From the NCBI RefSeq assembly GCF_003334785.1, contig NZ_QOWV01000002.1: a stretch of 64,000 nucleotides of DNA; one strand, 5' to 3'. The translations under genes were made by a program, and so were the position numbers. Shown here in pieces: positions 5,630-39,121 of the stretch (the first letter of the stretch is position 1; each line of letters opens with the position of its first letter). This DNA comes from Escherichia coli (GTDB taxonomy: Bacteria > Pseudomonadota > Gammaproteobacteria > Enterobacterales > Enterobacteriaceae). The notes below the pieces were generated by a model. That model made no database searches and was not told where the DNA came from. It worked only from the letters and a program-made list of their open reading frames with translations.

Positions 5630-5806
5630 TTTCCGCGTCATGCTTCACGCCGCAGATGCGTTGGCTGCGCTCGTTCACCCCTGTCACATAGTTATCTATG
5701 CTCCTGGGGCTTCACTCACTTGCCGCCTTCCTGCAACGCGAATCATTTAGCGGAAAAATCCTGGGGCTGCCAACTGGCGGCCCTTTTACAAAGAAGGATA
5801 ACTAAA

Positions 5807-8038: not shown

Positions 8039-8176
8039 TTACTTGCTGCTCTGAAGGTTGTTAACCACCAGTAAATTGTCGCCGGAGAGACTCCGGTTAT
8101 TATTTACCTCGGTTAACAGCGCACCAGAAACAATAAGTACGATACAAAAGCACCGTATCTTCATTGTGCGGTCCAT
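8039..8176 (-). CDS. candidate small membrane protein encoded within the ryfA locus (45 aa from the first ATG, 41 aa from an internal ATG at 8164); hypothetical TimP-like toxin
   Basis: Manual translation of the minus strand: MDRTMKIRCFCIVLIVSGALLTEVNNNRSLSGDNLLVVNNLQSSK, stop at 8039-8041, followed immediately by a GC hairpin at 8011-8031. Below the ORF-track reporting size (shortest listed ORF is 60 aa). No canonical Shine-Dalgarno seen, so this is speculative. Confidence 0.3.
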   Translation of the reverse strand: MDRTMKIRCFCIVLIVSGALLTEVNNNRSLSGDNLLVVNNLQSSK

Positions 8177-8294
8177 GCGAAGACCGCATCACGACAGCAC
8201 CACTGGCGATATTGCCGCGATAGCAAGCGCTGTGAAACACCTGCATTTACGGCCACGGAACATCCTTTCCTAAAGCCAGCGCCCGTTTGCGAGA

Positions 8295-8491
8295 CGGCGG
8301 AAAGGGCCGCAGTGGATAATACACTAACAGAACAATAATAACTCTCTTTTGCTTGACAAAAAGAGAGTTACTGGCGAGTATTGTCTCCGCTGAGACGCGC
8401 TTGCATTACTACGGTAATACAACCTGCTGGAAAGGCCGCGAACCGGACCAGCAACAAAAAACCGCCTGATTTTGGCGGTTTTTTGTTTTTT
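8295..8491. repeat. ryfA-locus tandem module, copy 1 (~200 nt, ends in a bidirectional terminator)
   Basis: Aligns by eye to 8617-8810 at roughly 80-85 percent identity; shared blocks GGCGGAAAGGGCCG, ACTCTCTTTTGCTTGACAAAAAGAGAGTTACTGG, CCTGCTGGAAAGGCCGCGAACC, then a terminator. Confidence 0.7.
8455..8491. terminator. bidirectional intrinsic terminator (AAAAAACCGCC-tgatttt-GGCGGTTTTTTGTTTTTT)
   Basis: GC stem flanked by an A-run on the 5-prime side and a T-run on the 3-prime side, so it is functional on either strand. Confidence 0.75.
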
Positions 8492-8616
8492 AAAGGAAAG
8501 TGAATTTACATGTTTAAGTAATATCTTTTACCGGTTAGAATTTTTAATTTTGAGCAGGATTTGTTTATATTTGTCTGAATTCGGACTAATAAGCCAGGTT
8601 ATTTTATTACCGAACA

Positions 8617-8810
8617 CGGCGGAAAGGGCCGGTGTCGATAATACGCTAAATAAACAATAATTACTCTCTTTTGCTTGACAAAAAGAGAGTTACTGGTGAG
8701 TATTGTTTTGCTGTGAAGCACCTGCGTTGCTCATGTAACACAAGTCAACCTGCTGGAAAGGCCGCGAACCAGACTAGCAATAAAAAACCGCCAAATTCGG
8801 CGGTTTTTTA
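8617..8810. repeat. ryfA-locus tandem module, copy 2
   Basis: Diverged duplicate of 8295-8491, separated from it by a ~125-nt AT-rich spacer. Confidence 0.7.
8782..8810. terminator. bidirectional intrinsic terminator; ends the sseA transcript and module copy 2
   Basis: AAAAAACCGCC-aaatt-CGGCGGTTTTTT, 15 nt downstream of the sseA stop on the minus strand. Confidence 0.8.
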
Positions 8811-8825
8811 TTGCCTGTAAAATAC

Positions 8826-29629: not shown

Positions 29630-31207
29630 ATGACGGAAAACATTCATAAGCATCGCATCCTCATTCTGGACTTCGGTTCTCAGTACACTCAACTGGTTGC
29701 GCGCCGCGTGCGTGAGCTGGGTGTTTACTGCGAACTGTGGGCGTGGGATGTGACAGAAGCACAAATTCGTGACTTCAATCCAAGCGGCATTATTCTTTCC
29801 GGCGGCCCGGAAAGTACTACTGAAGAAAACAGTCCGCGTGCGCCGCAGTATGTCTTTGAAGCAGGCGTACCGGTATTCGGCGTTTGCTATGGCATGCAGA
29901 CCATGGCAATGCAGTTGGGCGGTCACGTTGAAGCCTCTAACGAACGTGAATTTGGCTACGCGCAGGTTGAAGTCGTAAACGACAGCGCACTGGTTCGCGG
30001 TATCGAAGATGCGCTGACCGCAGACGGTAAACCGCTGCTCGATGTCTGGATGAGCCACGGCGATAAAGTTACCGCTATTCCGTCCGACTTCATCACCGTA
30101 GCCAGCACCGAAAGCTGCCCGTTTGCCATTATGGCTAACGAAGAAAAACGCTTCTATGGCGTACAGTTCCACCCGGAAGTGACTCACACCCGCCAGGGTA
30201 TGCGCATGCTGGAGCGTTTTGTGCGTGATATCTGCCAGTGTGAAGCCCTGTGGACGCCAGCGAAAATTATCGACGATGCTGTAGCTCGCATCCGCGAGCA
30301 GGTAGGCGACGATAAAGTCATCCTCGGCCTCTCTGGTGGTGTGGATTCCTCCGTAACCGCAATGCTGCTGCACCGCGCTATCGGTAAAAACCTGACTTGC
30401 GTATTCGTCGACAACGGCCTGCTGCGCCTCAACGAAGCAGAGCAGGTTCTGGATATGTTTGGCGATCACTTTGGTCTTAACATTGTTCACGTACCGGCAG
30501 AAGATCGCTTCCTGTCAGCGCTGGCTGGCGAAAACGATCCGGAAGCAAAACGTAAAATCATCGGTCGCGTTTTCGTTGAAGTATTCGATGAAGAAGCGCT
30601 GAAACTGGAAGACGTGAAGTGGCTGGCGCAGGGCACCATCTACCCTGACGTTATCGAATCTGCGGCGTCTGCAACCGGTAAAGCACACGTCATCAAATCT
30701 CACCACAACGTGGGCGGCCTGCCGAAAGAGATGAAGATGGGCCTGGTTGAACCGCTGAAAGAGCTGTTCAAAGACGAAGTGCGTAAGATTGGTCTGGAGC
30801 TGGGCCTGCCGTACGACATGCTGTACCGTCACCCGTTCCCGGGACCAGGCCTTGGCGTTCGTGTTCTGGGTGAAGTGAAGAAAGAGTACTGTGACCTGCT
30901 GCGCCGTGCTGACGCCATCTTCATTGAAGAACTGCGTAAAGCGGACCTGTACGACAAAGTCAGCCAGGCGTTCACTGTGTTCCTGCCGGTACGTTCCGTT
31001 GGCGTAATGGGCGATGGTCGTAAGTATGACTGGGTTGTCTCTCTGCGTGCTGTCGAAACCATCGACTTTATGACCGCACACTGGGCGCATCTGCCGTACG
31101 ATTTCCTCGGTCGCGTTTCCAACCGCATTATCAATGAAGTGAACGGTATTTCCCGCGTGGTGTATGACATCAGCGGCAAGCCGCCAGCTACCATTGAGTG
31201 GGAATGA
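29630..31207 (+). CDS. guaA: GMP synthase (glutamine-hydrolysing)
   Basis: 525-aa ORF; GATase Cys (GVCYGMQ) and ATP-PPase motif SGGVDSS. Confidence 0.96.
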
Positions 31208-31232
31208 TTTGACCCTGCACTATGAATGAACA

Positions 31233-31262
31233 AAACCCTCTGTTACTACAGAGGGTTTTTTA
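31233..31262. terminator. intrinsic terminator shared by convergent guaA and yfgI
   Basis: AACCCTCTG-ttactac-CAGAGGGTT followed by TTTTT on the plus strand. Confidence 0.75.
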
Positions 31263-31299
31263 TCTTCAAGAATTATAGGATTGAAGTTACTAACATCGA

Positions 31300-31839
31300 T
31301 TAATTAAACCAGCTGTCCGATTTGTTCTCTTCTGCTTTGCCCACGCTTTTCATCAGATCGCGACCGCCTTCAGTCATATTTCTGTTGGCGTCAGCTTCAG
31401 ATTGCACCACATCGGTTTGCGCAGCTTTGTGCTTCAGTTCCTGATCGATAAATTCGTTTTCTCGCTTAACGCGGGCTTCTTCTTTCGCCAGCGCCAGTTT
31501 TTGTTTCTGAATCTCTAAGCTGCGTAGCTCATCTTCATAACTTTGATCGCGTTTTTTGTCCGCAGAGGCTTCGGCGTCCAGTTTATCCTGACGAGCTTTC
31601 TTATTTGCCGCTGCCGTTGCCGCTCTTTTGTTAGCGGCGGCCTGGGCATTTGCGCGACGTTGCTTCTCTTGCTGGATTTCCCTGTTGCGCTCCGCGACCC
31701 ATTCGTCATGCTGCCTTTGCTCTTCATTTTTACCTTGCTGTTCCGCTTCTGCGACAGCAGAGAGTTGATCCTGCAATGATGAGGCGATAGCCGGATAGCT
31801 TAAGGAGGCTAAGATGGCGCAAAGAAAAACTTTCTTCAT
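31300..31839 (-). CDS. yfgI: periplasmic protein YfgI (signal peptide, charged coiled-coil-like)
   Basis: 179-aa ORF; signal peptide MKKVFLCAILASLSYPAIASS, then A/K/E/Q-rich sequence. Confidence 0.88.
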   Translation of the reverse strand: MKKVFLCAILASLSYPAIASSLQDQLSAVAEAEQQGKNEEQRQHDEWVAERNREIQQEKQRRANAQAAANKRAATAAANKKARQDKLDAEASADKKRDQSYEDELRSLEIQKQKLALAKEEARVKRENEFIDQELKHKAAQTDVVQSEADANRNMTEGGRDLMKSVGKAEENKSDSWFN

Positions 31840-31854
31840 GACTCCTCCTGATTA

Positions 31855-32373
31855 TTAGCTCTTTTCAGGACATTTGGTATTTGGCTGAATACGCGTTTCG
31901 TTATACGTCGTGGTAATAACAACGGCTAAACCTGTCGTAAACTGGCACTCTTTACCCACCTGGGTAGAGGTATACACTTTGGTGCCTTCCTTATAGGTTA
32001 AAGAAACACCTTCCACTAAGGTTTTATCATTCACCATAGAACCCGCTGCCGCGCCTACAGCTCCGCCGCCAACTGCACCTGCCGTCGTTCCGGAATTGCT
32101 GCCAGACCCGACGTTGTGGCCGATAACACCGCCAGCGACTGCGCCAATAAGCGCGCCGAAGGCTTGTGCGTTCCGTTTATTTTGGGAGTTGTCTACGGCA
32201 ACTTTTGCGGGAAGAATGGAAATAATATTAACGGTTTTAGTTTCTTGTTTGGTATTCAGTTGATCGGTTTGATAAACATCGGCAGCATGATCGTCAGCAT
32301 TTGACTGGCATCCTGCCAGAGTGAATGACGCTAACATTGCCACAGGCAGAAGACATTTTTTAAATTTCATCAC
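31855..32373 (-). CDS. yfgH: outer-membrane lipoprotein YfgH (glycine-zipper)
   Basis: 172-aa ORF; lipobox LAGC; Gly-zipper GALIGAVAGGVIGHNVGSG. Confidence 0.88.
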   Translation of the reverse strand: MMKFKKCLLPVAMLASFTLAGCQSNADDHAADVYQTDQLNTKQETKTVNIISILPAKVAVDNSQNKRNAQAFGALIGAVAGGVIGHNVGSGSNSGTTAGAVGGGAVGAAAGSMVNDKTLVEGVSLTYKEGTKVYTSTQVGKECQFTTGLAVVITTTYNETRIQPNTKCPEKS

Positions 32374-32683
32374 TATTCCTTGTTATACACATTACGAAAA
32401 ATAAGACATTTAAGATCATCAAAAGAGGAAAGTAAATGTATTGCGTATAAAGGGATAGATTAAATTTATTAAAATTCACGCAGGGAATAATTTATAAAAA
32501 TATATCATTACAACATATATATTAATTTTATATTTATTTCGCAGCCAAACAGGATAAACATCAGTCAGGATAAAGACGTAAAATTTAAGATGAAAGAATA
32601 TCTGCCGCTTTGATAATCCCAAACAGCAAAAGCATCCGACAGCGAAGTGCCGTTATGTTCTGTGAAAGTGGAGAAGGTAACCG

Positions 32684-32875
32684 CTAACGTTGTACCGGTG
32701 ATTCGACGGAGAGTGTGGATTGCTGAGCTTCTTTTTTGCTCTGATGGTGCTGCCAGGCACCGACGGACGAGTAGATAAAACGGCCAAAGAAGAAGATAAA
32801 GCTGATGAGCAGTACGATACGGGTCATGCGACTGTTAAATCGGTGTCGTTTTCGCATACTGGTTGCCTGACTCAC
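32684..32875 (-). CDS. yfgG: small membrane protein YfgG
   Basis: 63-aa ORF with a single TM segment (IVLLISFIFFFGRFIY). Confidence 0.8.
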   Translation of the reverse strand: MSQATSMRKRHRFNSRMTRIVLLISFIFFFGRFIYSSVGAWQHHQSKKEAQQSTLSVESPVQR

Positions 32876-33226
32876 AAAAGGTTCCTTGAAGTATGTCCCA
32901 CGCTGTGGACGGTACTTACATTAAGGCACAACAGGACAAAATGGTCAATTCTTCGTTATGTAAAAAAGCGTCAGTGGATACATATTTTAATGTTATGGAA
33001 GTTAATTTAATTATTTACAATGATGATGTAATAATGATGAATTAACATGATAAACGTAATAATTCATTAATCAGGGTTATTTTGTTTGATATATATCAAT
33101 TGGTACTTTCATATGACACTTAGAATCAATGCTCTCTATAGTGATGAATAATCATCATTCGAAGTCAGGTGGGATGCCTGTCTGAATACACCTCCTTCAG
33201 GATGTGGGGGATTCTGCTGAGCATCT

Positions 33227-35470
33227 ATGAAACTGAATGCAACTTATATAAAAATACGTGATAAATGGTGGGGGCTTCCGCTGTTCCTGCCTTCTTTAAT
33301 CTTGCCCATTTTCGCCCACATTAATACTTTCGCGCATATTTCTTCCGGTGAGGTTTTTCTCTTTTATCTGCCTCTGGCACTGATGATCAGCATGATGATG
33401 TTTTTCAGCTGGGCGGCATTGCCAGGGATCGCCTTAGGGATTTTTGTCCGCAAATATGCAGAGCTGGGTTTTTACGAAACGCTATCATTAACGGCTAATT
33501 TTATTATCATTATCATTCTCTGTTGGGGCGGTTACAGGGTCTTTACTCCCCGGCGTAACAACGTTTCACATGGTGATACCCGTTTAATTTCCCAGCGTAT
33601 ATTCTGGCAGATTGTGTTTCCTGCAACGCTGTTTCTGATACTTTTCCAGTTTGCTGCATTTGTAGGATTACTGGCGAGCAGAGAAAATCTGGTCGGTGTC
33701 ATGCCTTTTAACCTCGGGACTTTAATCAATTATCAGGCCTTACTGGTGGGTAATCTGATCGGTGTCCCGCTGTGCTACTTCATCATTCGGGTAGTGCGAA
33801 ATCCATTTTATTTACGTAGCTATTATTCGCAATTAAAACAGCAGGTTGATGCCAAAGTCACCAAAAAAGAGTCCGCGCTCTGGCTACTGGCATTAGGTGC
33901 TTTATTGTTGCTGTTATGCATGCCGTTAAATGAAAAAAGCACAATTTTTAGCACCAATTATACCTTGTCATTATTGCTGCCCCTGATGATGTGGGGAGCG
34001 ATGCGCTATGGTTATAAGCTGATTTCGCTGCTCTGGGCGGTCGTGTTGATGATCAGCATCCACAGCTATCAAAATTACATTCCCATTTATCTTGGCTATA
34101 CCACGCAGCTGACCATAACCTCCTCCAGTTATCTGGTATTCTCTTTTATTGTCAATTATATGGCTGTACTGGCAACCCGTCAGAGAGCGGTAGTCAGACG
34201 CATTCAGCGGCTTGCGTATGTGGACCCGGTGGTTCATCTGCCAAATGTTCGCGCCCTGAATCGCGCGTTGCGTGATGCCCCCTGGTCTGCGCTTTGTTAT
34301 TTACGCATCCCTGGCATGGAAATGCTGGTTAAGAACTATGGCATCATGCTGCGGATTCAATACAAGCAAAAACTTTCTCACTGGCTGTCACCCTTGCTGG
34401 AACCGGGTGAAGATGTTTATCAGCTTTCGGGTAACGATCTCGCGCTGCGACTGAATACAGAATCGCACCAGGAGCGCATTACCGCACTGGATAGCCATCT
34501 CAAGCAATTTCGTTTCTTTTGGGATGGCATGCCGATGCAACCGCAGATTGGCGTCAGTTACTGCTATGTGCGCTCGCCAGTGAATCATATCTACCTGCTG
34601 CTGGGAGAGCTAAATACGGTCGCCGAACTTTCCATCGTGACCAACGCCCCGGAAAATATGCAGCGTCGCGGGGCAATGTATTTGCAACGCGAATTGAAAG
34701 ATAAAGTCGCGATGATGAATCGACTACAGCAGGCGCTGGAACACAACCATTTTTTCCTGATGGCCCAGCCGATTACCGGTATGCGTGGTGATGTTTACCA
34801 TGAAATTCTTCTGCGCATGAAAGGTGAGAATGATGAACTGATCAGCCCCGATAGCTTCTTGCCGGTCGCGCACGAATTTGGTTTATCGTCGAGTATCGAC
34901 ATGTGGGTCATTGAGCATACGCTGCAATTTATGGCTGAAAACAGAGCGAAGATGCCCGCTCACCGTTTTGCTATTAATCTGTCTCCAACCTCGGTATGTC
35001 AGGCTCGTTTTCCTGTTGAAGTCAGTCAGTTGCTGGCTAAATATCAGATTGAAGCGTGGCAACTTATTTTTGAAGTCACCGAAAGTAATGCTCTGACCAA
35101 TGTTAAGCAGGCGCAAATCACCTTGCAGCATCTTCAGGAATTAGGCTGCCAGATTGCGATTGATGATTTCGGCACCGGCTACGCCAGCTATGCGCGGCTT
35201 AAAAATGTGAATGCCGATCTGCTTAAAATTGACGGCAGTTTTATCCGCAATATTGTGTCAAATAGTCTGGATTATCAGATAGTGGCATCGATTTGCCACC
35301 TGGCGCGAATGAAGAAAATGCTGGTAGTGGCAGAGTACGTTGAAAACGAAGAGATCCGCGAGGCGGTGCTCTCTTTGGGGATCGATTATATGCAGGGTTA
35401 TCTTATTGGTAAGCCGCAGCCGTTAATTGATACGCTGAATGAAATCGAACCCATTCGCGAAAGTGCCTGA
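33227..35470 (+). CDS. pdeF: c-di-GMP phosphodiesterase PdeF (YfgF; MASE1 - degenerate GGDEF - EAL)
   Basis: 747-aa ORF; N-terminal polytopic membrane domain, C-terminal EAL domain with EVTE motif. Confidence 0.92.
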   Translation: MKLNATYIKIRDKWWGLPLFLPSLILPIFAHINTFAHISSGEVFLFYLPLALMISMMMFFSWAALPGIALGIFVRKYAELGFYETLSLTANFIIIIILCWGGYRVFTPRRNNVSHGDTRLISQRIFWQIVFPATLFLILFQFAAFVGLLASRENLVGVMPFNLGTLINYQALLVGNLIGVPLCYFIIRVVRNPFYLRSYYSQLKQQVDAKVTKKESALWLLALGALLLLLCMPLNEKSTIFSTNYTLSLLLPLMMWGAMRYGYKLISLLWAVVLMISIHSYQNYIPIYLGYTTQLTITSSSYLVFSFIVNYMAVLATRQRAVVRRIQRLAYVDPVVHLPNVRALNRALRDAPWSALCYLRIPGMEMLVKNYGIMLRIQYKQKLSHWLSPLLEPGEDVYQLSGNDLALRLNTESHQERITALDSHLKQFRFFWDGMPMQPQIGVSYCYVRSPVNHIYLLLGELNTVAELSIVTNAPENMQRRGAMYLQRELKDKVAMMNRLQQALEHNHFFLMAQPITGMRGDVYHEILLRMKGENDELISPDSFLPVAHEFGLSSSIDMWVIEHTLQFMAENRAKMPAHRFAINLSPTSVCQARFPVEVSQLLAKYQIEAWQLIFEVTESNALTNVKQAQITLQHLQELGCQIAIDDFGTGYASYARLKNVNADLLKIDGSFIRNIVSNSLDYQIVASICHLARMKKMLVVAEYVENEEIREAVLSLGIDYMQGYLIGKPQPLIDTLNEIEPIRESA

Positions 35471-35475
35471 ATAAT

Positions 35476-35502
35476 GCGGGCCGACATTTCTCGTCGGCCC
35501 GC
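35476..35502. terminator. bidirectional terminator between convergent pdeF and ppx
   Basis: GCGGGCCGAC-atttctc-GTCGGCCCGC, a perfect 10-bp stem. Confidence 0.7.
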
Positions 35503-35508
35503 AAAGTA

Positions 35509-39121
<3,613 letters not shown>

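Follow-up and report, generated by a model that had tools for sequence, protein, structure and literature searches.

A probable H-NS-coated AT-rich domain of two-part origin between guaA and ppx in Escherichia coli

The AT-rich islet that holds yfgI, yfgH, yfgG, and the divergent cyclic di-GMP (c-di-GMP) phosphodiesterase gene pdeF, between guaA and ppx in a 64,000-nucleotide stretch of the Escherichia coli chromosome (contig NZ_QOWV01000002.1; hereafter, the window), is in our view probably a long-standing chromosomal domain coated by H-NS and made up of two parts of different origin. The first part would be the yfgH-yfgI (yfgHI) module with its own AT-rich promoter region, located just past an attachment site at the 3' end of guaA. 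Its arrival at this site would predate the split of Escherichia, Salmonella, and Citrobacter, and many lineages would later have lost or replaced it; diverged copies of it circulate in P1/P7 phage-plasmids and small ColE1-type plasmids. The second part would be the ancestral yfgG/pdeF pair, the AT-rich spacer of which holds a sigma70/sigmaS promoter for yfgG, a class II FNR promoter for pdeF, and a structured leader. We propose that H-NS, together with StpA, spreads over the domain and that a terminator and a Rho stop insulate yfgH from transcription of yfgG, with the result that yfgHI would be almost off until outer-membrane damage induces them; that H-NS silences yfgHI itself is what we infer. 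The same spread would explain published data in which pdeF responds to FNR weakly unless H-NS/StpA is removed, while yfgG, also according to published data, escapes silencing and is expressed. Given the signals that they carry, the long AT-rich spacers would be promoter and silencer DNA rather than hidden genes.

RESULTS

The AT-rich islet is real, and it is mainly a property of the two spacers, to which a mild shift of the genes is added. The spacer between yfgH and yfgG (32374-32683; 310 bp, 30.6% GC, z = -3.2) is the fourth longest of the 45 intergenic regions in the window, and the spacer between yfgG and pdeF (32876-33226; 351 bp, 34.2% GC, z = -2.4) is the second longest. Among the intergenic regions that reach 100 bp, these two have the lowest GC content; the 17 others served as the reference for the z-scores (mean GC, 0.451; standard deviation, 0.045). 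All of the 40 300-bp segments with the lowest GC content in the 64 kb (10-bp steps; 0.277 to 0.337) start between 32201 and 33001, and A/T runs of at least 6 cover 30% and 23% of the two spacers, compared to 6.4% of the window. An earlier note on this DNA had set unusually long, AT-rich spacers against GC-richer flanking genes, and both the ranking and the sliding-window values agree with that description. The GC content of the genes is 0.493 for yfgI, 0.472 for yfgH, 0.495 for yfgG, and 0.466 for pdeF, compared to 0.524 ± 0.028 for the genes of the window; GC content at third codon positions is clearly deviant only in yfgH (0.428; z = -2.8). In Salmonella bongori, Citrobacter portucalensis, and Pseudocitrobacter, yfgI, yfgH, and pdeF likewise lie 3 to 9 GC points below guaA, which indicates that the compositional difference is old and has been maintained. 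A perfect copy of the 10-mer TCGATAAATT, which we take to be the H-NS high-affinity consensus, is found inside yfgI at 31445-31454.

Published chromatin immunoprecipitation (ChIP) data place the islet under an extended H-NS domain. Table S3 of Myers 2013 (PMC3688515) lists H-NS ChIP-chip regions at 2624400-2628963 (aerobic) and 2626274-2628408 (anaerobic) of U00096.2, which we converted to window positions (U00096.3 = U00096.2 + 1978; window = 2662165 - U00096.3), anchoring the conversion on the FNR motif position of that study (2627088) and on the K-12 start of pdeF. The aerobic domain of that table starts 17 bp past the guaA stop codon and spans yfgI, yfgH, yfgG, pdeF, and the end of ppx (Table 1). 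The pdeF (yfgF)/yfgG spacer is also listed in Shimada 2014 as an H-NS site identified by genomic systematic evolution of ligands by exponential enrichment (SELEX) and as an RpoD "constitutive promoter" site, and H-NS occupancy, which the earlier note had suggested, is thus on record both in vivo and in vitro. According to the data given for this locus in Myers 2013 (PMC3688515), the average FNR ChIP peak at yfgF/yfgG rises from 0.35 in the wild type to 1.68 in an hns stpA double mutant, yfgF is among the genes that are oxygen dependent only in that mutant, and Table S9 reports no FNR-dependent expression change for the yfgF/yfgG peak in the wild type in glucose minimal medium. The claim of an H-NS-silenced locus fits pdeF in this respect but does not extend to yfgG, which is expressed, with sigma70 and sigmaS ChIP-seq peaks and a strong Term-seq 3' end. 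A preprint (10.64898/2025.12.22.696046) reports that YfgH is present at about seven copies per cell basally, is strongly induced upon knockdown of lpxC, lptD, or bamA, is required for growth in sodium dodecyl sulfate (SDS) plus EDTA, localizes to the outer membrane, and has an outer-membrane stabilizing role; the stress induction foreseen in the earlier note agrees with these results. The islet is, in sum, an already documented H-NS-coated and mostly quiet region that is ordinary for its kind.

The window represents the E. coli chromosome, and the islet genes correspond to K-12 b2503 (pdeF), b2504 (yfgG), b2505 (yfgH), and b2506 (yfgI), between ppx and guaA. The 55 annotated genes were mapped onto the window, and the coordinates of the open reading frames (ORFs) agree with the annotation. 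The gene content and positions are as first noted, and the protein descriptions were confirmed by Pfam: YfgI matched DUF5384 (E 9e-62), YfgH matched PF05433, glycine zipper 2TM (E 7e-8), with the lipobox LAGC ending its N terminus, YfgG matched DUF2633 (E 4e-28), and PdeF matched MASE1 (E 2e-69) and EAL (E 8e-71). The Pfam scan gave no GGDEF match between MASE1 and EAL at an independent E of up to 10, which fits the published description of this domain as degenerate (PMC3718329). The islet region was matched at ≥95% identity in 5426 of 5426 complete E. coli genomes, with ≥80% of it in one piece in 5402.

The two halves of the islet differ in their distribution, which was determined by scanning genome contigs with PdeF, mapping the neighbors by tblastn, and looking up exact proteins. 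The order yfgG-pdeF-ppx-ppk is kept across the sampled genera (Escherichia, Enterobacter, Phytobacter, Kluyvera, Salmonella, and Citrobacter), with or without yfgHI, and the yfgG/pdeF spacer measures about 350 to 385 bp in most loci (239 to 431 bp overall). The gene yfgG lies beside pdeF in most loci examined and was not detected in L090, L092, L093, and L215. Judged by synteny, yfgG and pdeF appear to be an ancestral divergent pair. The yfgHI module is found between yfgG and guaA in Escherichia species, locus L016, S. bongori, C. portucalensis, and Pseudocitrobacter, and the literature describes it as present in S. Typhi and absent from S. Typhimurium. At a Typhimurium-type Salmonella locus, its place is taken by an rve integrase fragment and a DUF1493 gene (L083 5071-5695). 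The module is also absent from C. rodentium, where guaA abuts yfgG, from C. amalonaticus, which has an HTH_46 gene there, from another Citrobacter with a channel-gene fragment in its place, and from Kluyvera, Enterobacter, and Phytobacter. The earlier note had treated the islet as a single unit, with a composition typical of anciently acquired DNA; the unit comes apart in this comparison, and ancient acquisition would suit yfgHI, which is patchy across the Enterobacteriaceae and has phage and plasmid homologues, but not yfgG-pdeF, which is conserved in all genera sampled and is followed by ppx in every genus examined.

Relatives of YfgI form 269 clusters at 90% identity (E ≤ 1e-5), and the named ones are almost all from Enterobacteriaceae. 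In P7, upf50.5 shares 67% identity with YfgH and upf50.0 shares 47.5% with YfgI over the full length (blastp), and the order and spacing of the two genes are the same. The pair is also present in P1 and on small ColE1-type (ColRNAI) plasmids, the ColRNAI identities being 77.5% and 59%. The chromosomal YfgI proteins of other genera are 70 to 84% identical to that of E. coli. Given that these chromosomal copies are nearer to E. coli than the mobile copies and share the same site, a single ancient entry with later losses and replacements would be favored over repeated gain. Gain of yfgHI only in Escherichia was considered and rejected, as the same site is occupied in S. bongori, C. portucalensis, and Pseudocitrobacter.

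Two further observations concern this module. The YfgI clusters of E. coli differ in length (full length, about 165 to 182 aa), which points to insertions and deletions in the Ala/Lys/Gln-rich central region; Tandem Repeats Finder reported no tandem repeats in yfgI. Small ColRNAI mobilizable plasmids, represented by CP056397.1 (L087 570-3944), carry the yfgH/yfgI-like pair beside a divergent phosphoethanolamine-transferase-like gene and an IS5 fragment. We considered this gene as a possible MCR determinant and rejected it, as the product is CptA-like and falls far under all curated MCR and EptA cutoffs.

Prophages use the 3' end of guaA for attachment, and the adjoining interval is a cargo hotspot. 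The similarity of the phage TL-2011b record (NC_019445.1) to the window starts at 31193, E. fergusonii carries an exact copy of the 18-bp core on the far side of its prophage, and the inserts of Escherichia sp. E1V33 and E. whittamii start at about 31210; the loci concerned, besides the window, include L084 (4235-4252) and L089. A prophage lysis cassette abuts yfgI in both E. fergusonii and the TL-2011b record. Other cargo beyond guaA includes major facilitator superfamily (MFS) transporters, LysR regulators, a GNAT acetyltransferase, an AbiEi_2-domain gene, and acyltransferases. At the guaA/yfgG site of L092 (2604-4377), an AbiEi_2-domain gene is followed by a 273-aa gene without a Pfam hit. 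The TL-2011b record reaches into host DNA and lists yfgI, yfgH, yfgG, and a 50-aa ORF as phage genes, and in the TL-2011b and P7 RefSeq records, the yfgH-like lipoprotein is labeled "DNA methyltransferase," which looks like a misannotation.

The 310-bp spacer between yfgH and yfgG holds termination signals for yfgG and a candidate promoter for yfgH. Within Escherichia, the middle of the spacer varies, conservation is high over the approximately 110 bp adjoining yfgH, and the stem region of the yfgG terminator is conserved as well. The RNA 3' end and the Rho-dependent termination region in Table 1 come from supplementary file 2 of Adams et al. 2021 and were converted to window coordinates. Both hexamers of TTTACT-17-TTAAAT and the ribosome-binding site ACAAGGA are conserved in E. 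coli, S. bongori, Pseudocitrobacter, C. portucalensis, and L016, regardless of which gene precedes yfgH, and the DNA upstream of yfgH has 30 to 34% GC in all of them. We infer from this conservation that TTTACT-17-TTAAAT is the yfgH promoter, and the AT-rich promoter region appears to travel with yfgH. A generic promoter and terminator scan gave counts no higher than those in shuffled sequence and so was not informative alone. Rfam 15 gave no family match in 30800-33700 apart from one chance hit (E 0.92, a eukaryotic long noncoding RNA model). In C. portucalensis and L016, yfgG and yfgH are separated by a 292-aa MscS-like gene, and such a gene lies beside yfgG in Kluyvera. A decayed copy of it in the 310-bp spacer was considered and rejected, given that tblastn and blastn found no similarity (best E 0.1; 460-bp target).

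The 351-bp spacer between yfgG and pdeF contains, despite its low GC content, blocks that are invariant across genera in an alignment (A2) of 14 loci from Escherichia, Enterobacter, Phytobacter, Kluyvera, and another relative. The yfgG promoter hexamers are invariant in 14 of 14 loci. IS5 often inserts into H-NS-bound promoter regions, and an IS5 insertion known from a gallium-evolved line, at K-12 position 2,629,042, maps to window position 33123, inside the pdeF -10 element. The yfgG promoter sequence matches that given in Shimada 2014, its transcription start site (TSS) and a sigmaS ChIP-seq peak have been reported (PMC4447067), and a strong anaerobic sigma70 ChIP-seq peak is given at 2627279, equivalent to window position 32908, in the Myers 2013 data (PMC3688515). 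The gene has been implicated in Ni/Co tolerance in a Dub-seq preprint. On the pdeF side, the FNR motif TTGAY-N4-ATCAA is invariant in the 14 A2 loci and reads TTGAT-N4-GTCAA in L086, L093, and L010; the -10 element TAGAAT is likewise kept across genera. The spacing between this box and the -10 element fits a class II promoter at the position indicated in PMC3718329, which, citing Lacey 2010, describes a class II FNR-activated yfgF promoter and anaerobic FNR-dependent expression; an FNR ChIP peak and motif at yfgF/yfgG are likewise among the data of Myers 2013 (PMC3688515).

The same spacer contains the 50-aa ORF mentioned above. In Enterobacter, Phytobacter, and Kluyvera, stops interrupt its frame throughout despite conservation of the DNA blocks. 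The ORF also overlaps the yfgG promoter and shows many amino acid changes within Escherichia; we rejected it as a real gene and consider that it is probably spurious.

Three observations concern pdeF itself. Between genera, PdeF diverges faster than its neighbors (57 to 63% identity, compared to 86 to 88% for Ppx, 92 to 93% for Ppk, and 94 to 97% for GuaA). E. fergusonii PdeF is 74% identical to that of E. coli, and those of other Escherichia species are 92 to 93% identical, which suggests an allele replacement in E. fergusonii. A published Rho-termination region antisense to pdeF (K-12 2626899+; window 35266, minus strand) suggests antisense transcription inside the AT-rich pdeF.

The 5' leader of pdeF combines conserved hairpins with a conserved start region. 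Leaders were collected from the A2 loci, from loci found by exact-protein look-up, and from a metagenome pattern scan (120 loci, L094-L213), in which 94 of 120 had a PdeF N terminus downstream and 68 had unique leaders; the loci besides the window include L083, L084, L086, and L090-L093. The HP2 block can form a CAGG/CCUG stem whose loop holds GGAUG. Because the metagenome scan selected for this block, part of its invariance there stems from the pattern used, but it was invariant beforehand in the independently collected loci. HP3 has 33 different stems among 60 distinct leaders, with the pair beside its core varying between U-A, A-U, and C-G, and a GGA occurs in its loop in 58 of the 60, about 28 nt from the GGA of HP2. 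The arrangement found is that expected of CsrA-regulated leaders, in which two or more GGA motifs lie 10 to 63 nt apart and at least one is in a hairpin loop. The CsrA SELEX consensus is RUACARGGAUGU, which the E. coli HP3 loop resembles. The start region CUGAGCAUCUAUG contains no GGA, and none overlaps the ribosome-binding site or the start codon. GGAUGC of the HP2 block is complementary to the GCAUCU that adjoins the start codon, and the pairing is used in the minimum-energy folds of 10 of 17 diverse leaders. Among 44 sequences, this putative pairing showed no compensatory changes, only one-sided ones (three wobble compatible and three breaks). The folding energy of the E. coli leader was not unusually low (z = -0.33), and the leader had no Rfam match. 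RNAalifold on a MAFFT alignment returned the invariant hairpin only, owing to misalignment of HP1 and HP3, and the hairpins were accordingly analyzed per sequence. We found no paper that links CsrA to pdeF and no yfgF/pdeF entry in the supplements examined of E. coli CsrA crosslinking and immunoprecipitation sequencing (CLIP-seq) studies, whose aerobic conditions barely express pdeF.

TABLE 1 Positions of features of the islet and its borders in the window
Feature	Position	Strand	Remarks
guaA	29630-31207	+	
Prophage attachment core, 18 bp	31193-31210		Covers 12 nt at the end of the guaA coding sequence, the stop codon, and the next 3 nt; forms the left border of the variable interval
Extended H-NS ChIP-chip domain	31224-35787 (aerobic); 31779-33913 (anaerobic)		Converted from Myers 2013, Table S3
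guaA intrinsic-terminator-like hairpin	31232-31259	+	12-pair stem followed by a T run; TTATCTTC
yfgI	31300-31839	-	DUF5384; secreted, charged, coiled-coil-like; second gene of the yfgH-yfgI module
yfgH	31855-32373	-	SlyB-like glycine-zipper outer-membrane lipoprotein; first gene of the module
Predicted yfgH promoter TTTACT-17-TTAAAT	-35, 32436-32431; -10, 32413-32408	-	Predicted from conservation
Rho-dependent termination region, yfgG/yfgH	32476	-	2629689(+) of U00096.3; Rho score 8.5, p 1e-48
yfgG terminator hairpin and mapped RNA 3' end	32642-32602; 3' end, 32592	-	Term-seq 2629573(+); flanks CTGTCGGATGCTTTTG...CAAAGCGGCAGATATTCTTTC
yfgG	32684-32875	-	63-aa DUF2633 membrane protein
50-aa ORF	32893-33045	+	Prokaryotic Genome Annotation Pipeline (PGAP) hypothetical protein WP_000017552.1; annotated in many E. 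coli records, without K-12 annotation; probably spurious
yfgG promoter TTGACC-17-CTTAAT	-35, 32948-32943; -10, 32925-32920; TSS, 32912	-	
Conserved blocks upstream of the yfgG promoter	32958-32996		ATGTAAA..CGTCAG; ACAT-N6-ATGT palindrome; A2 columns 113-152
FNR box, class II pdeF promoter	33086-33099	+	TTGATATATATCAA
pdeF -10 element TAGAAT	33121-33126	+	Predicted TSS, ~33133
pdeF 5' leader	33133-33226	+	~94 nt from the predicted TSS to the ATG
HP1	33140-33159	+	Hairpin shape kept, sequences differ
HP2	33166-33183	+	Invariant hairpin CAGGUGGGAUGCCUGUCU; block CAGGUkGGAUGCCUGyCU
HP3	33184-33214	+	ACCC...GGGU core; E. coli loop UUCAGGAUGU
GCAUCU	33221-33226	+	Invariant; adjoins the AUG; complementary to GGAUGC of the HP2 block
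pdeF (yfgF)	33227-35470	+	MASE1 - degenerate GGDEF - EAL c-di-GMP phosphodiesterase

Outside the islet, two intergenic regions of the window stood out. The timP-sseA spacer (8165-8825) is the longest of the window, at 661 bp and 43.9% GC, and contains two direct copies of about 190 bp that are 83% identical (8294-8484 and 8616-8809). Between iscX and pepB (5631-5787), the window cannot be aligned with the ETEC1734 reference over about 157 bp, and the block upstream shows a 120-bp offset, which indicates a variable intergenic element.

DISCUSSION

We consider it likely that the islet is an old H-NS-coated domain in which a module of mobile-element type adjoins an ancestral gene pair. Several points weigh against this view. 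The GC shift of the genes themselves is modest (z of about -1.3 to -2.3). H-NS occupancy and derepression come from the supplementary tables of one in vivo study and one in vitro screen, and Table S6 of Myers 2013 gives "None" for nucleoid-protein overlap at the yfgF/yfgG FNR site, which conflicts with Table S3 of the same study. We found no data on derepression of yfgH-yfgI in an hns mutant. We found no second attachment core in the window and neither a duplicate of the core nor an integrase remnant flanking yfgHI in E. coli. The ancient presence and repeated loss of yfgHI were deduced from synteny and rough identities, and repeated site-specific gain would be a conceivable alternative.

A simpler account, in which nothing was acquired and the spacers are ordinary core regulatory DNA, long and AT-rich through the several promoters that they hold and bound passively by H-NS, seems improbable to us. 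It is consistent with the presence of the region in all 5426 complete E. coli genomes, with the promoter blocks of the yfgG/pdeF spacer that are invariant across genera, with the good expression of yfgG, and with the fact that upp/purM, another spacer of the window, is also marked as an H-NS site in the list of Shimada 2014. However, yfgHI is missing in many close relatives at an otherwise conserved locus, its homologues keep their gene order in P1/P7 and on small plasmids, the cargo after guaA differs in nearly every genus, and the H-NS domain given by Myers 2013 extends over 2.1 to 4.6 kb and covers coding DNA besides promoters. The opposite account, that yfgI-yfgH-yfgG-pdeF is one acquired island for c-di-GMP control of envelope stress, is very unlikely, and the synteny data have gone most of the way to refuting it: the order yfgG-pdeF-ppx is found without yfgHI in C. 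rodentium, C. amalonaticus, Salmonella, Kluyvera, Enterobacter, and Phytobacter, and yfgHI occurs without yfgG or pdeF on plasmids and in P7. Adjacency, a published H-NS domain that spans all four genes, their below-average GC content, and a PdeF that diverges much faster than its flanks speak for such an island. The connection of pdeF and c-di-GMP to envelope stress had been proposed in the earlier note from adjacency alone, and we found no paper tying pdeF to envelope stress.

We give equally little credence to the idea that unannotated genes lie hidden in the spacers, whether a decayed MscS-like gene (32374-32683) or a genuine protein of 50 aa (32893-33045). C. portucalensis and L016 do carry an MscS-like gene at the former position, as Kluyvera does beside yfgG, and in many E. 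coli genomes the 50-aa ORF has a PGAP annotation. Set against this, tblastn and blastn gave no trace of an MscS-like gene in the E. coli spacer (best E 0.1), the 50-aa frame is broken outside Escherichia and changing within it while the conserved DNA that it overlaps is the yfgG promoter, and there was no Rfam family match.

The H-NS coverage, the FNR promoter, the Rho site, and the gene functions are already annotated or published; with everything central already in print, the novelty of our study is low. What we add is a view of the islet as a composite, the recognition of the guaA 3' end as an attachment site and cargo hotspot, and the conserved leader of pdeF. The likely H-NS-coated, two-part domain offers a synthesis in which the near silence of the stress-protective YfgH would follow from its place in an old module of mobile-element type that H-NS covers. 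The guaA 3' end is an integration hotspot at which Enterobacteriaceae variously hold prophages, an AbiE-type gene, transporters, or nothing. The GGA-loop hairpins of the pdeF leader may be CsrA sites, and the leader could be a new CsrA target, which we regard as a lead rather than a result. More speculatively, and with some doubt on our part, the leader could be a conserved posttranscriptional switch, with two GGA(UG) loops for a CsrA dimer and with GGAUGC alternatively pairing with GCAUCU at the start; it is just as tentatively that we suggest that CsrA, or another factor recognizing the loops, would decide the opening of the start site. If true, this switch would tie the Csr system to anaerobic c-di-GMP degradation in Escherichia, Salmonella, Citrobacter, Enterobacter, Kluyvera, and Phytobacter.

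The islet resembles the H-NS-silenced, anciently acquired AT-rich islets of E. coli and Salmonella that are subject to xenogeneic silencing in that its AT content exceeds that of its flanks, an extended H-NS domain covers it, a Rho site lies within it, basal expression of yfgH is low, IS5 can enter a silenced promoter, and a patchy yfgHI adjoins an integrase target site. It differs from them in its small size (2 to 4.5 kb), its presence in every complete E. coli genome examined, its modest coding GC shift, the vertical inheritance of the yfgG-pdeF half across the family, and the activity of the yfgG promoter. The upf50.5-upf50.0 pair of P1/P7 and the ColRNAI pair share the gene order of the module (lipoprotein, then DUF5384), with the genes 4 to 15 bp apart, identities of 47 to 77%, and a GC content of 42 to 48%; in contrast to these, the chromosomal copy has its own conserved AT-rich promoter, and the P7 pair lies between the immI region and a late tail-tube operon. 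YfgH shares with SlyB and other glycine-zipper lipoproteins a lipobox, a glycine-zipper 2TM domain, and, according to the preprint, outer-membrane stabilization, whereas the preprint sets it apart by its approximately seven copies per cell, its induction by outer-membrane biogenesis defects, and suppressors that map to clsA and not to mla genes.

The regulatory region of pdeF also has known counterparts. Like the class II FNR promoters of yfiD and dmsA, it has a perfect TTGAT-N4-ATCAA, a TAGAAT spaced for a center at -41.5, and published FNR ChIP occupancy, but Tables S9 and S11 of Myers 2013 place FNR binding there without an expression change in glucose minimal medium unless H-NS/StpA is removed. 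The leader can be compared with those controlled by CsrA, which represses glgC, dgcT (ycdT), and dgcZ (ydeH) and activates ymdA. It likewise carries two conserved GGA-loop hairpins, with CAGGAUGU as the HP3 loop in E. coli, and, as in ymdA, a GGA segment able to pair with the start region. In contrast to the CsrA-controlled leaders, that of pdeF has no GGA over the ribosome-binding site, and its folding energy is unremarkable.

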